In this document: positions 3,795 through 61,569 of the stretch, piece by piece
How positions within the stretch are numbered: position 1 is the first letter of the stretch
How the letters are laid out: every line of letters starts with the position of its first letter
Assembly: GCA_951406725.2 (NCBI GenBank)
Contig: OX597817.1
Location: 175,398,001-175,462,000 of the forward strand
Length of the DNA stretch: 64,000 bases
Origin: Octopus vulgaris
Lineage: Eukaryota
Reading direction: 5' to 3'
The notes under the pieces: model-generated
Databases searched by the model: none
What the model saw: the letters and a program-made list of their open reading frames with translations, nothing else
What the model was told of the DNA's origin: nothing
Position numbers and translations under genes: made by a program

Positions 3795-4029
3795 GATAGA
3801 ACGCTAAAATTTAGTGCGCATGCACAGCAGAGTTCAAGGTCAATCTGAACCGAGTGGCTTCACTCTGCGTGCTTTAGCTTTGTTACTATGGCAACAATCT
3901 GGATACTTATTGATCAGGCCAGTAATTGATTGTATTGTATGGTTACATAACGAAATAAGGTGTACAATATTTACATTATTTACATTATTTACATTCGACA
4001 GATATTTGTCCTCGTCTTGTTTGTTGTTA

Positions 4030-4073
4030 ACACAACGTTTCGGCTGATGTACCCTCCAGCCTTCTTCAGGTGT
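4030..4073 (-). ncRNA. Minimal type I hammerhead ribozyme motif
   Basis: acac-CTGAAGA-a-ggctg[gagggtacat]cagcc-GAAA-cg-TT-gtgt. Stems I and II are perfect, stem III is reduced to palindromic ACGT, triplet GUU. Confidence 0.78.
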
Positions 4074-4270
4074 CTTGGGGAAATTTCGAACCCGTGGGTA
4101 TATGGTGTAGTGGTTAAGAGCGCGAGCTACTAACCCCAAGATTCCGAGTTCGATTCCAAGCAGTGACCTGAATAACAACAACAACAACAACAACAACAAC
4201 AATAATAATAATAATAATAACATCGAAAAATACCTTAGGAATGAGAACCCAGGTTCGAAATTTCCCCAAG

Positions 4271-4314
4271 ATACCTGATGAAGGCTGGAGGGTATATCAA
4301 CCGAAACGTTGTGT
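4271..4314 (+). ncRNA. Minimal type I hammerhead ribozyme motif
   Basis: atac-CTGATGA-a-ggctg[gagggtatat]caacc-GAAA-cg-TT-gtgt. One stem II mismatch and one G-U pair in stem I. Confidence 0.75.
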
Positions 4315-4419
4315 TAACAACAAACAAGATGAGGACGAATATCCGTCGAATGTAAATAATGTAAATAATATAAATAATGTACATAATTCCTCATCCATTA
4401 AATGTAGAACTGAAATAAT

Positions 4420-4632
4420 GTCTCCCTACCAGCAATTAGCATCATCTTTTCGTATCATTGCAACATTGCTTAGAAAGCAAACATGCTTATTAAAAAAAAA
4501 TGTTTGTTATGAAGAGGTTAAAAATGATATTTGACTCCGAAACTGGAAGAATTTTATGCCTGATGGATCAATGATTTACCAAATAGATAAGATTATGTTA
4601 TCAATACTGAGGGCAAATATTTTCTTTATTAA
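4420..4632 (+). pseudogene. Mariner transposase C-terminal relic
   Basis: Degenerate translation ...YEEVKND...EFYA*WINDLPNR*DYVINTEGKYF resembles the mariner C-terminus (FY..GI..L..RW...I...G.Y). Confidence 0.55.
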
Positions 4633-5548
4633 ATACGTTAAGGTTTCTGTGGTTGCTTTCACTCTTTCAGTGACAGACACCGACCCCTCATATTACGAAG
4701 ATTACAATAGTTTTTGACGCCGCTACAGGCGTTTTCATCACACAAAATAGCAGCAATATAACTTAATAAACAAGGACATCGAATCACAGATTACGTTATG
4801 TAAGTCCAATTTTATATTTACCTTTCTGGAGGAAGACACTTAACGCTATATTACAAGGTGTAGTTAGTTCATTGAAATGTTAGACATAGAAACCACATGA
4901 TTAGCATCTGGAAACATTCTTAGGTTTTGTGTCAACTTATCTTCTTCAGTATTGCATTTCCTTGTAAAAATAAGTCTGTGGAAGTTGTTGGGTTAACGTA
5001 CGATTAACAAGCCTTAGAAATGCATCATGGGCGGCAGCGTGGTGTCGGCGTTGTCGGCGTTGGCGCTAGCGTCATTGTCGTCGTCGTCGTCATCATCATC
5101 ATTAACATCAAAACCACCACCACCACCACCACTTCTATCATCATCATCATCATCATCATCATCATCATCATCATCATCATCATCATCATCATCATAATCA
5201 CAGTTTACAGTTTAGACGATTACAACGTTTCATCAGAATTTGGCCTCGTCAGACTGTCTATTCGTATATATGTATGTATTATGTGTGTGTGTGTGTGTGT
5301 GTGTGTGTGTGTGTATGTGTGTGTGTGTGTGTGTGTGTGTGTGTGTGTGTGTTGGTGTGTGTGTAAGAACATTTTATCTTGAATAAAAATTGTACTCAAT
5401 ACTAAGTGACTTGATTGAATAAATATTTCAGCATGGGCTTACTATTTTGAGATCTTTTTGGCTGGGTGTGGTCTCGAAATGCATACATATATATATACAT
5501 ACATACATGATTTTATATACGTATATATATATATATATATATATATAT

Positions 5549-58677: not shown

Positions 58678-59130
58678 CGCCATGATAGATCGCTATCCAC
58701 TAAACCCATTTCTATTTTCTCTCCCTGTTTATTTCTGTGTTCCTTTCTGTGGAAGAGCGTAGGCTCAAAACGCAAAAGACTTTCTCACTCCCCGAGCCTT
58801 AAACTAATACACCTGTTTGTTGTTTACACACCCGTCTTCGTCTTTTGTAAATTCTCACTATCTTTATATATATATATATATATATGTACGGAGAATTCAC
58901 ACAAAAAAAAAGGCAGGTGGTGTAGACAACAAATAGATGTATTAGTATAACGCTCTGGAAGTGAAAAAGTCTTTAACGTTTCGAGCCTACGCTCTTCCAC
59001 AGAAAGGAACACAGGAAGAAACAAGGAGAGAAAATAAAGAATGTGTAGTGGCTTGTGATCTATCATGGCGAAGGCCGGACAGAAGGGTCACACAGGAGAG
59101 CTAGGGAGAAGGGGAGATAACAAAGTGGTG
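58678..59130. mobile_element. Two diverged copies of an HHR-like element, tail-to-tail across a (TA)n tract
   Basis: Plus copy at 58678-58860 (motif 58743-58778, GAAA>AAAA). Minus copy at about 58890-59130 (motif 58971-59006: cttt-CTGTGGA-a-gagc[gtag]gctc-GAAA-cg-TT-aaag). Confidence 0.75.
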
Positions 59131-59456
59131 GTGATATATATATATATATATATATATATATATATATATATAATTAATTAATAAGGGTGAGAGAATTAGA
59201 TACTAATTTAATAGCATATCTATTCAACACCAAGTGGCCCAGTGCCTCGAGAAACCTGGATTATTATAATATTTTATAATATATTATAATATTTTATACA
59301 AAAATAAATATAAGAGAGTGGTCACTATGTGGCTCATTCTAGCACTAGAAAATCCAAAAGGTTTCAACCACAAAAATACGTTGTTTCCTATGAAAGTCAG
59401 TACGATTGTTAGCTCACACGAACAGGGCAAATAAAAAATAACAAAAATACAGATTA

Positions 59457-59537
59457 TTTTGGGACAATTGTTTCGCTATTAATGAATTAAATGTAATTTT
59501 ACTTACAAAAAACCCACTTGTAGCTCCTCAGCCAAAA
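59457..59537 (-). ncRNA. Canonical type I hammerhead ribozyme motif (left arm)
   Basis: Exact mirror of 59724-59804. Confidence 0.85.
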
Positions 59538-59723
59538 CTATCTGGATGAAATCCACTCAATCACACGCCAGATTTTACCATAACGATAAATACACGTGTG
59601 GTTCAATTGATTTGTTGGTAAGGGCATTTGAATTATAACGTCGGATGTAATCAATTGAACCACACGTGTATTTATCGTTATGGTAAAATCTGGCGTGTGA
59701 TTGAGTGGATTTCATCCAGATAG

Positions 59724-59804
59724 TTTTGGCTGAGGAGCTACAAGTGGGTTTTTTGTAAGTAAAATTACATTTAATTCATTAATAGCGAAACAATTGTCCC
59801 AAAA
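59724..59804 (+). ncRNA. Canonical type I hammerhead ribozyme motif (right arm)
   Basis: ttttgg-CTGAGGA-gcta[42 nt]tagc-GAAA-caattg-TC-ccaaaa. 6-bp stem I, complete CUGANGA/GAAA core, G10.1-C11.1 pair, palindromic stem III ACAATTGT, GUC site at 59796-59798. Confidence 0.87.
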
Positions 59805-61569
59805 TAATCTGTATTTTTGTTATTTTTTATTTGCCCTGTTCGTGTGAGCTAACAATCGTACTGACTTTCATAGGAAACATGTATTTTTGTGGTTGAAACC
59901 TTTTGGATTTTCTAGTGCTAGAATGAGCCACATAGTGACCATTCTCTTATATTTATTATTTATTTTTATTTTTATATATATATATATATATAATGCCAGT
60001 GCCGAAGCATGGGCACAGCTCATGAGCTGAAACTAGATAAAAAAAGATATATATGATAGAGCGAGTGAGAAAGGGAGAGAGAGAGAGAGAGAGAGAGAGA
60101 GAGAGAGAGAGAGAGAGAGAGAGAGAGAGAGAGAGAGACAGACAGACCAAGTGAAAGAGAGAAGATTATAGTTTATAGGATGCGTTTTGAAATAAGTTAA
60201 AACTGTTTCAGAAAGTGAAGCAAATGCAAGGTAGAGATAACAGCCTGAAAACTGGAGCAAACAACCTAATTAGTAGTTTGGACGTTTACCTTATATTTTG
60301 ATAACTCTAGTTTTTTTAACCCCGGAATATTGGAATATAAGAGAAAAAGAGAGAGGTACACACAGACACACATATATATATATACAAGCATTCATAGATG
60401 TGTCTGTATATGTACACATACATATGTACATCCGTATTAAAACGTGTATGCATACATTTATGTATTTCTGTCTATGTGCACCACTCTCTCTCTCTCTCTC
60501 ACTCTTTCTCTCCCAGTACGAATACTTATATATATATGCATATCTATGTATTCACACACACACATATCTATTTTTCTTTCTATCTGCGTATCTATCTATC
60601 TATCTATCTATCTATCTATCTATCTATCTATCTATCTATCTATCTATCTATCTATCTATCTATCTATCTATCTCTATTTATCTATCTATATATCTATCTA
60701 TGTTTCTATGTCTGTTTGTCTATCCAGATCTCTCTCTCTCTCTCTCTCTCTCTTTATATATATATATTTACATATATACATATATAAATATATGTATATA
60801 TATATATATATGTATATATATATATATATATATATATATATATGTATATATATATATATGTATGTATGTATGTATATATATATATAGAAATCTGGATAGA
60901 CAGATATATTTATATACATACATGCATACATTCACACAGAAAACACACTCACATATACACACGTTTATGAATGTGAACGTAAACTCAATAACGATTTACA
61001 GAATTAGCCATCGTTTTAGATCATTTATGTTTCCACGCACCAAAGGCAATAAATATTCGTTTCGCGTACCAACGACAAGCAATGCAACAACCTTTCAGGT
61101 CACACAACAACCGATACACACACTACGTATTGTATCATACACAAGAACATGCAGTGTTGCAGTAGATTTCATTATCCATCGAATCAAAGAGATCGATCGT
61201 TAATGCTGTAGTGGACAAAATTTCTTTTTGACACCTACTAACAAAACTAATAGTTAGTGACAACCGAAGCTGTCAGAAAATCGTTTAGGCTGTCTGCATT
61301 ATCGGTTCTTGCAATATGTTTATTAGTGATAATAGTCTTGTTTCGTATTATTAAACCCTTTCATTGAATTAAGCTGCTCGGATCAATAATTGTTCTAGCG
61401 TGCCACAAGAATCCTTGCTCTCCTATCGCTATCCTTTAATTTGACTGGCGAAAGAGATGTATCGAAATCTGTTTCATGTTAAAAACCTAATATCTAATGA
61501 TATTATATATATATAAAGTGCATTTTTTAATACATTTAATGCGTAAACTTGTAGCTGTTGTTGTTGTAG

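Follow-up and report, generated by a model that had tools for sequence, protein, structure and literature searches.

Hammerhead ribozyme motifs in a 64-kb stretch of Octopus vulgaris DNA as probable 3' ends of Penelope-like elements and their passengers

We report on the hammerhead ribozyme (HHR) motifs in a 64,000-nt stretch of the Octopus vulgaris genome (contig OX597817.1, positions 175,398,001 to 175,462,000). This whole stretch is called the window, and all coordinates are counted in it; L followed by a number denotes a genomic locus retrieved for comparison, and searches were run over the 2.8-Gb genome (227 contigs). Our results lead us to conclude, with a probability of about 0.88, that the motifs are the hammerhead-bearing 3' ends of about ten mobile families, two of them pieces of intact Penelope-like elements (PLEs) and the others likely PLE passengers, and that most lie in (TA)n tracts. 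Dispersed HHR-bearing PLE remnants, opposite-strand pairs and a TA bias are already in print (PMC4209133, PMC8557442; here and below, published work is represented by the parts of each source available to us). Going beyond these sources are a family headed by a tRNA-like sequence (family A), the A6U and U3:A8/A13C cores in intact elements, and a rule of one end site per arm in head-to-head insertions.

Hammerhead motifs, their families and the TA tracts

The first-pass annotation, made from the letters of the window alone, had flagged about 17 folds at about 12 loci, and the coordinates it gave are the first bases of real motifs. Sixteen of the 17 motifs, at 11 of the 12 loci, are supported and spread over ten genome-wide families: nine pass our extended descriptor, and seven are decayed copies of families with intact members elsewhere. 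The motif that falls away is the A9C core at 41470..41505 (+), a single copy for which a genome search gave one candidate, itself. A strict type I HHR descriptor gave three matches in the window and none in each of 40 block-wise dinucleotide shuffles. The extended descriptor, which also admits U3:A8, U4C, A6U, A13C and an odd-centred stem III (variants picked after inspection of the data), gave nine matches, against none in 10 of 10 shuffles and none in the reversed window. The passing cores lie at 4069 (-), 4275 (+), 5688 (-), 16733 (-), 24814 (+), 56935 (-), 59002 (-), 59531 (-) and 59730 (+), and only four of the nine have the fully canonical CUGANGA/GAAA core. The lesions of the decayed copies are a broken stem III palindrome at 7377 (-), G5A at 15228 (+) and 24270 (-), an A.A first stem II pair at 17963 (-) and 17975 (+), and changes in GAAA/stem III at 43803 (+) and 58743 (+).

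On 40 fixed-position 10-kb stretches elsewhere in the genome, the extended descriptor found 18 motifs, against 0 to 2 per shuffle. Across 1.44 Mb of retrieved loci (mostly family-selected), 222 motifs were sorted into 24 clusters whose stems pair but are unrelated to one another; two of the clusters, each with a single member, look like chance. Stem III palindromes among the clusters are ACGU, ACAAUUGU, ACAGCUGU and ACCGGU, besides odd-centred ones. The paired stems had been taken to argue against chance, and the shuffles and clusters bear this out. Although TA tracts are dense (1.4 per kb), the motif at 41470 has no family and the relaxed cores were chosen post hoc, the idea that such folds arose by chance in DNA rich in AT and in repeats, and lie near TA tracts only through tract density, has next to no probability left, given these counts, the architecture common to the clusters, the downstream-biased TA excess described below and a family conservation that refutes it for 16 of the 17 motifs.

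The 3' ends of the elements were said to run into TA tracts, and (TA)5 or longer does lie 33 to 408 nt downstream of the motif at 9 of the 11 supported loci; the exceptions are 4030/4271, where the nearest downstream tract is 1172 to 2285 nt away, and 43803 (3395 nt). In the 40-stretch sample, TA occurs within 250 nt downstream of 10 of the 18 motifs and upstream of 4 of the 18 (background 0.205). Per independent 3' end, the figure is 10 of 12 (p=6e-6); one end too near the edge of its stretch and the five internal units of a single array are left out of this count. The proposed check of TA distance and orientation came out in favor of a downstream bias. TA stands at the 3' end of the main copy in 15/17 loci of family E, 24/25 of F, 29/30 of D, 17/30 of B, 12/25 of C and 0/30 of A. 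TA targeting is thus real, not universal.

The window holds one locus per ~5.8 kb, close to the one per 5 kb first estimated; the estimate does not carry over to the genome, since intact motifs are about three times as frequent in the window (9 per 64 kb) as in the sample (18 per 400 kb). Loci of the window's own families number 26 per 400 kb in the sample. A crude extrapolation from the 18 motifs per 400 kb, 7 of which sit in one array, gives ~1e5 intact motifs genome-wide.

By family, the cores of A, E and G agree with the type I consensus, those of C and H have U3:A8 and those of B', D and F have U4C; the consensus is broken in B (A6U) and J (A13C). Variants of PLE hammerheads have reportedly been described by Lunse et al., and A6U, A13C and an extra A before G12, found here in family C, may be in print there. 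The window's motifs fall outside the arrays called by TRF, and a repeat search dominated by microsatellites nevertheless recovered the inverted arms.

Minimal type I HHRs were described in the pseudo-long terminal repeats (pseudo-LTRs) of metazoan PLEs by Cervera and de la Pena in 2014 (PMC4209133). Shared with that description are dispersed single motifs from truncated PLEs, many families per genome, opposite-strand pairs 100 to 700 bp apart, a palindromic helix III, an extra nucleotide that separates positions 9 and 10.1, and U3-A8 covariation. Within the part of PMC4209133 compared, which excludes its supplementary alignments, we did not find A6U, A13C, the extra A before G12, the TA link or the tRNA-headed family. 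PLE families with recent activity are among those listed in a repeat annotation of octopus (PMC13282606), and the literature that we found on octopus HHRs, taken without the external repeat library and supplements of PMC13282606, does not describe the present families.

An Rfam scan of the window gave no hammerhead family among the matches listed (150 of 358), which are microsatellite-driven miRNA models, and tblastn found no PLE coding sequence in the window, whose open reading frames (ORFs) belong to unrelated mobile elements. Two further motif-like sequences were noticed: CUGACGA ... GAAACGUU with a poor stem II at 5200-5270 (-), with no homologue in ~1.1 Mb of retrieved loci, and CUGAUGA ... 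GAAAC without a palindromic stem III at 62920-62975 (-), with no homologue in the retrieved loci.

Families B and J and the autonomous Penelope-like elements

Families B and J are 5'-truncated ends, and the PLE lineages from which they come are autonomous and have intact ORFs. The first-pass annotation had proposed PLE-derived or retrozyme-like non-autonomous families colonizing TA tracts; the PLE link, the TA targeting and the multiplicity of families stood, and non-autonomy did not hold for these two. In the window, family J is represented at 56835..57082 by a head-to-head remnant of a pseudo-LTR with TA at both ends, an HHR at 56901-56941 (-) with U3:A8 and A13C, and a ~35-nt tail on the + arm. 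This locus, first listed at 56902, has no GAAA and looked doubtful; it matches L166 at 97 to 100% beside a GIY-YIG ORF. An intact family J element (L262) has 873-bp repeats that are 99.8% identical, an ORF1 of 472 aa, an ORF2 of 784 aa and an HHR in both repeats. A related element, L178, reads in the order (TA)n, 504-bp repeat, ORF1 of 479 aa, reverse transcriptase (RT)-GIY-YIG ORF, 100% identical repeat and (TA)n; both of its repeats contain a U3:A8 HHR. For family B, frames of 1119 aa (L288) and 1095 aa (L289) lie between direct repeats of 638 and 342 bp that carry the family's A6U HHR, and the 638-bp repeats are 98.4% identical.

The L178 ORF exceeds the Pfam cut-off for GIY-YIG and falls just under it for RVT_1 (28.9 bits against 29.6); the 784-aa ORF of L262 and the 1119-aa frame of L288 resemble it. 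Family B leads to a second lineage, ~30% identical in RT. A CX4CxxC linker is present in 5 of 5 proteins checked and DKG in 3 of 5, and TA flanks L178, L262 and L288. A genome search for GIY-YIG returned 6136 candidates; 150 of these were scored, and many of them have identical frames of 781 aa. For the lineage to which family B leads, the count was 8946 candidates. First-look searches (40 candidates scored each) returned 1407 candidates for family B and 944 for J. Families E and J are very young, with copies 98 to 100% identical (J, 99%). The upstream ORFs of 472 to 479 aa are intact in two PLE lineages (L178:768-2204 and L262:1936-3351), and the one in L178 has no Pfam match over the cut-off.

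The linker is of the type common to Neptune and Nematis PLEs, and Neptune is the likelier assignment because of the TA bias. With these PLEs as described in PMC8557442, the present elements share RT, a CX2-5CxxC linker, GIY-YIG and pseudo-LTRs, as well as, in family J (7 of 7 pairs), the inverted 5'-truncated copy with a one-sided tail, and the microsatellite bias of Neptune, which Craig et al. (2021) attributed to the linker, is also seen here. Tails are ~35 to ~170 nt here and 30 to 40 nt in that description, and the J and L178 lineages have the upstream ORF, unlike the Neptune and Nematis elements in the available part of PMC8557442. A reading as Naiad or Chlamys PLEs was rejected, since GIY-YIG is C-terminal here and HHRs are present.

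The HHR cores of these elements depart from the canonical one. A6U is found in 33 of 34 family B copies, and U3:A8 together with A13C (GCAA for GAAA) in 26 of 26 family J copies. Non-canonical cores persist in intact, young elements. One explanation, to which we give slightly less than an even chance, is that ribozymes with the A6U and A13C cores are dead and travel with active elements for which cleavage is not needed. HHR mutants of a Poseidon element did not affect insertion in vitro (PMC11167929), a natural A6C variant is slow (PMC3088659), and family J is so young that fixation of its core shows no selection. Against it, A6U is kept across B subfamilies only ~74% alike, with the HHR stretch nearly unchanged, and A13C recurs in a second U3:A8 lineage (42 to 54% protein identity to the others), in which A13 copies also occur. 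In family E, the only listed change within the CUGANGA/GAAA core is at the free N7 (public contigs, four runs), a pattern consistent with selection. For the autonomous elements, we rate full activity and weak or dispensable cleavage as about equally likely. The second U3:A8 lineage is an observation in its own right, with C13 (GCAA) in L296, L307 and L031 and A13 (GAAA) in L309 and L295.

Further copies from the B group lie elsewhere in the window. A decayed family B copy at 43735..43915 (+; limits approximate) has an HHR remnant at 43803-43837 and no 3' TA. Another, at 58678..58864 (+) with a decayed A6U HHR at 58743-58778, ends at the TA tract starting at 58865, and a third, at 58886..59133 (-) with an intact A6U HHR at 58971-59006, faces the same tract. 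The last two were considered as an inversion pair and rejected as such, being two independent insertions facing one TA tract; no adjacent inverted copy of the query was found in 30 family B loci. The related family B' has an element at 5550..5760 (-; 5' limit approximate) with a U4C HHR at 5658-5692 and its 3' end at the TA tract 5522-5549. Homologues of B' are known from incidental finds only; its 12 motifs are spread over 12 loci, 11 of which have TA no more than 450 nt away. The flanks of the motifs had been called mostly unrelated, which is correct for most; those at 43803, 58743 and 58971 belong to one family (78 to 81% identical), and 5658 is a distant relative.

Family A, a tRNA-headed family with a minimal hammerhead

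The element at 4030/4271 had been listed with the others as part of a system lodged in TA tracts. It is not TA-associated, and its tRNA-headed SINE (short interspersed element) structure had been overlooked. In family A, a tRNA-like head is followed by an (AAY)n spacer and then by a body of 189 nt that contains a minimal HHR. In the window, the left target-site duplication (3952..3963, +) matches the right one (4412..4423, +) in 10 of 12 letters; an automated test allowing at most one mismatch scored it at 8 nt, a miss. Between them lie an inverted 5'-truncated arm (3964..4092, -; body positions 26-162, without the last ~27-nt tail), whose minimal HHR (4029-4074, -) has an extra A after A9, an ACGU palindrome and U17; the tRNA-like head (4096..4172, +), identified from sequence, with A-box- and B-box-like stretches; an internal (AAC/AAT)n spacer (4173..4221, +); and the body with its minimal HHR (4270-4315) and 3' tail (4222..4411, +), with no TA at the 3' end.

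The head is present in 26 of 30 loci, and with relaxed settings ARAGORN called a tRNA-Ser(act) on one copy (L075). An inverted body that ends at position 141 to 164 of 189, before the tail, accompanies the element in 17 of the 30 loci (an 18th match, a 27-nt fragment, was left out of the count), and no tandem copies were found in these loci. Whole head-spacer-body units stand inverted head to head, joined at the tRNA start, in L067, L073, L077 and L086. The duplications (~12 bp in this family) measure at least 10 nt at 11 of 20 pairs, compared with 4 among 380 cross-pairs. The genome gave 3193 first-look candidates (40 scored), and the sample holds four loci per 400 kb.

Because of the head-to-head inversion, the one-sided tail and the ~12-bp duplications, family A reads as a SINE integrated by PLE machinery, presumably riding a different, non-TA PLE. 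We can picture a fuller version, which we regard as tentative and on balance unlikely: a Pol III tRNA SINE moved by a PLE and not a LINE (long interspersed element), present in tens of thousands of copies without tandem templates, its head-to-head pairs primed at two sites, and its stem III palindrome used chiefly to bring two RNAs together in double-ended priming, and less for cleavage. If this were true, the RNA-pairing role would explain why A6U and A13C persist in active elements alongside a kept palindrome. A tRNA SINE that bears PLE marks would add an entry to the list of what drives SINEs.

Family A could instead be an ordinary LINE-dependent tRNA SINE, or a chimera made when an HHR-bearing PLE fragment landed in the (AAT)n tail of a SINE, which we consider improbable. 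It would fit the lack of a PLE partner among the 60 loci of the GIY-YIG search, where all readable elements are linker-bearing, the absence of the head in 4 of 30 loci, and one head in the sample that precedes an unrelated body. It fits poorly with a microsatellite that sits 5' of the body and not at the primed end, with whole units inverted and joined at the tRNA start, and with the frequency of inverted bodies and of duplications given above. A mobilizer of family A was absent among the 60 GIY-YIG-search loci, 26 RT-search loci and a tblastn of the other retrieved loci, where only linker-bearing PLEs were seen. An RT fragment beside copy L071 was rejected as mobilizer, as it belongs to the B lineage, and family A copies in L265, L304 and L307 were rejected as partner ends, being separate insertions.

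The SINE-like HHR elements of schistosomes resemble family A in being short non-coding retroposons in which an HHR comes after a Pol III-type promoter (PMC6765202). Those elements are tandem, with an active canonical-type HHR; family A, in contrast, has no tandem among 30 loci, a PLE-type minimal HHR, head-to-head copies, ~12-bp duplications and a one-sided tail. In the literature covered, which did not extend to repeat libraries, Repbase/Dfam and several supplements, we found no description of the family A form. The family A (AAT)n spacer in L089, L092 and L205 contains other elements, two of which resemble LINE 3' ends and perhaps come from an AAT-targeting LINE.

Retrozyme-like units, insertion ends and neighboring elements

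Families C and E are retrozyme-like, ORF-less tandem units with a type I HHR, as far as their sequences tell. The window has a family C copy (558-nt unit) with a short inverted arm (16933-16966) at 16498..16966 (-), with TA at both ends and an HHR at 16682-16739 whose core has U3:A8 and an extra A before G12. Family E (535-nt unit) lies head to head at 59173..59972, with TA at both ends and canonical HHRs at 59451-59543 (-) and 59718-59810 (+); its arms are 100% complementary over 231 nt, and the - arm bears a ~105-nt tail. Tandems of 535 nt occur in 5 of 30 family E loci, and 1 of 25 family C search loci (L185) holds seven units of ~559 nt. No ORF was seen in either unit, and predicted circular folds lie below those of 40 shuffles (E, -141.7 against -108.2+/-8.7; C, -155.0 against -115.5+/-6.3). 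First-look searches (40 scored each) returned 1721 candidates for C, 1331 for E, 2838 for F and 539 for G. At L187:2100-4800, within the sample, five ~355-nt units and two inverted ones form a classic array of the tandem retrozyme type, with a canonical HHR and TA at both ends. In a family C array at L186:2035-4321, the internal repeat unit is shorter (266 nt) and takes in the HHR region.

Animal non-LTR retrozymes are likewise ORF-less, highly self-paired tandem units with a type I HHR, and they have been proposed to be PLE-mobilized or PLE-derived (PMC7229834; bioRxiv 10.64898/2026.07.22.740005). The C and E units exceed the 170 to 400 nt described for them in the available parts of these sources; those of L187 do not. 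The C and E arrays directly display marks of PLE integration, namely inversion, a two-site tail and a TA target.

Families D, F, G and H may be non-autonomous elements or remnants of long 3' untranslated regions. Family D forms a head-to-head hairpin centered at 17968 (17897..18112; TA at both ends), with HHRs at 17930-17967 (-) and 17971-18008 (+) and a ~70-nt tail on the + arm; one 44-mer of this family has 128 exact matches by pattern search, and copies in 30 loci are at most ~300 nt, with 5' ends crowding just upstream of stem I. Family F, longer than 1 kb and with no ORF found, lies head to head at 24106..25344 (TA at both ends), with HHRs at 24810-24936 (+; U4C, ~95-nt loop II) and 24270-24396 (-; G5A). 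The family G element (15099..15341, +; 5' limit approximate) ends at the TA tract at 15342, and its HHR (15223-15307) has G5A here and CUGAUGA in most other copies shown. Directly after that TA tract, a CR1/L2-type LINE 3' fragment occupies 15440-15890. An ORF fragment head to head with one G copy was rejected as the autonomous partner, as it has no G sequence at its 3' end. The family H element (7266..7384, -) has a U3:A8 HHR (7337-7384) with a mutated stem III palindrome, and TA lies 71 nt downstream; homologues in L205, L206 and L263, incidental finds through which the family is known, keep ACCGGT.

Each family has two fixed sites, located downstream of the HHR, at which insertions end. In 51 of 56 head-to-head pairs, one arm stops at each site (E 19/19, J 7/7, F 4/4, C 7/11, D 14/15), a rule that points to paired priming and that we did not find stated in the available part of PMC11167929. 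The tail belongs to the arm reaching less far 5' in L166, L190, the window's family E copy and 10 of 15 D pairs. UA-rich stretches stand at the end sites in read-through copies of E, J, B and the L178 lineage. We suggest that the GIY-YIG domain would cut both strands of a TA tract and that a dimeric RT would prime the two target ends at distal and proximal internal RNA sites, possibly aided by short UA-rich stretches pairing with the TA primer, a microhomology step that we infer ourselves. The inversion and the one-sided tail would then result from the head-to-head joining of two cDNAs, usually truncated ones. Most short copies would keep the HHR because copying starts 35 to 410 nt past it. 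The HHRs are predicted to act as dimers via the palindromic stem III, and those of C and E would cut multimers into circles, as in retrozymes. The Poseidon element PAc of the green anole offers a parallel (Frangieh et al. 2024, PMC11167929): its protein cuts and extends both strands, with starts at two internal sites that define the tail and an HHR upstream, and a PAc dimer is predicted.

Fold-back self-priming of one cDNA, and not two primings at the target, could also yield inversions; in its favor, families A, D and J show short stretches of microhomology and junctions that resemble hairpins. It is disfavored since a copy of the longer arm cannot supply a tail that the longer arm lacks, and it is the shorter-reach arm that bears the tail; some of the D pairs concerned have near-equal 5' reach and are weaker evidence. 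We judge fold-back improbable. The long perfect inverted arms with TA flanks at 17.9, 24.1, 56.8 and 59.2 kb recall miniature inverted-repeat transposable elements or DNA transposons with terminal inverted repeats and TA duplication, an identity that is hardly credible given arm lengths and junctions that vary at nearly every locus, many copies without an inverted arm, two ends that differ by the tail, the tandem units, and the connection of J and B to RT ORFs.

Several points weigh against the reading as 3' ends of PLEs and their passengers. HHR identity rests on sequence and predicted folds: minimum free energy (MFE) dimers pair stem III in four of seven motifs (C, D, E and J) and leave it unpaired in A, B and B', and the monomers of B, B', D and J do not take a hammerhead shape in their MFE folds. 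A link to RT and GIY-YIG elements, as had been anticipated, was made for B and J, and no autonomous partner was found in the retrieved loci for A, C, D, E, F or H; in G, the one ORF fragment beside a copy lacks G sequence at its 3' end. By the test used, only about one 3' end in two has TA in families B and C, and 4 of 11 C pairs have like ends. The choice of Neptune or Nematis is based on the linker and the TA bias, not on an RT tree. The UA-pairing step has a counterexample in PAc, which primes at ATT sites without homology to the target (PMC11167929), whereas the TA families here have UA-rich ends.

This genome provides intact PLEs that are very young (copies 99% identical), together with their passengers and natural insertion products by the thousand, in which the role of the PLE hammerhead, the origin of the inversions and tails, and the mobilization of retrozymes and SINEs by PLEs can be tested. 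The window also holds elements of other kinds. A Tc1/mariner-type element at 5865-7213, between two TA tracts, has terminal inverted repeats and a transposase that is broken, and Helitron-like Rep/helicase fragments in several broken frames lie at 32600-35620 (-). About 20 copies of an abundant ~200-nt SINE-like family without a hammerhead (repeat families D13 and D17-D20) are scattered over 3315-56366, and a degenerate 12- to 13-nt satellite with a 347-nt higher-order repeat is found at 31430-32180.

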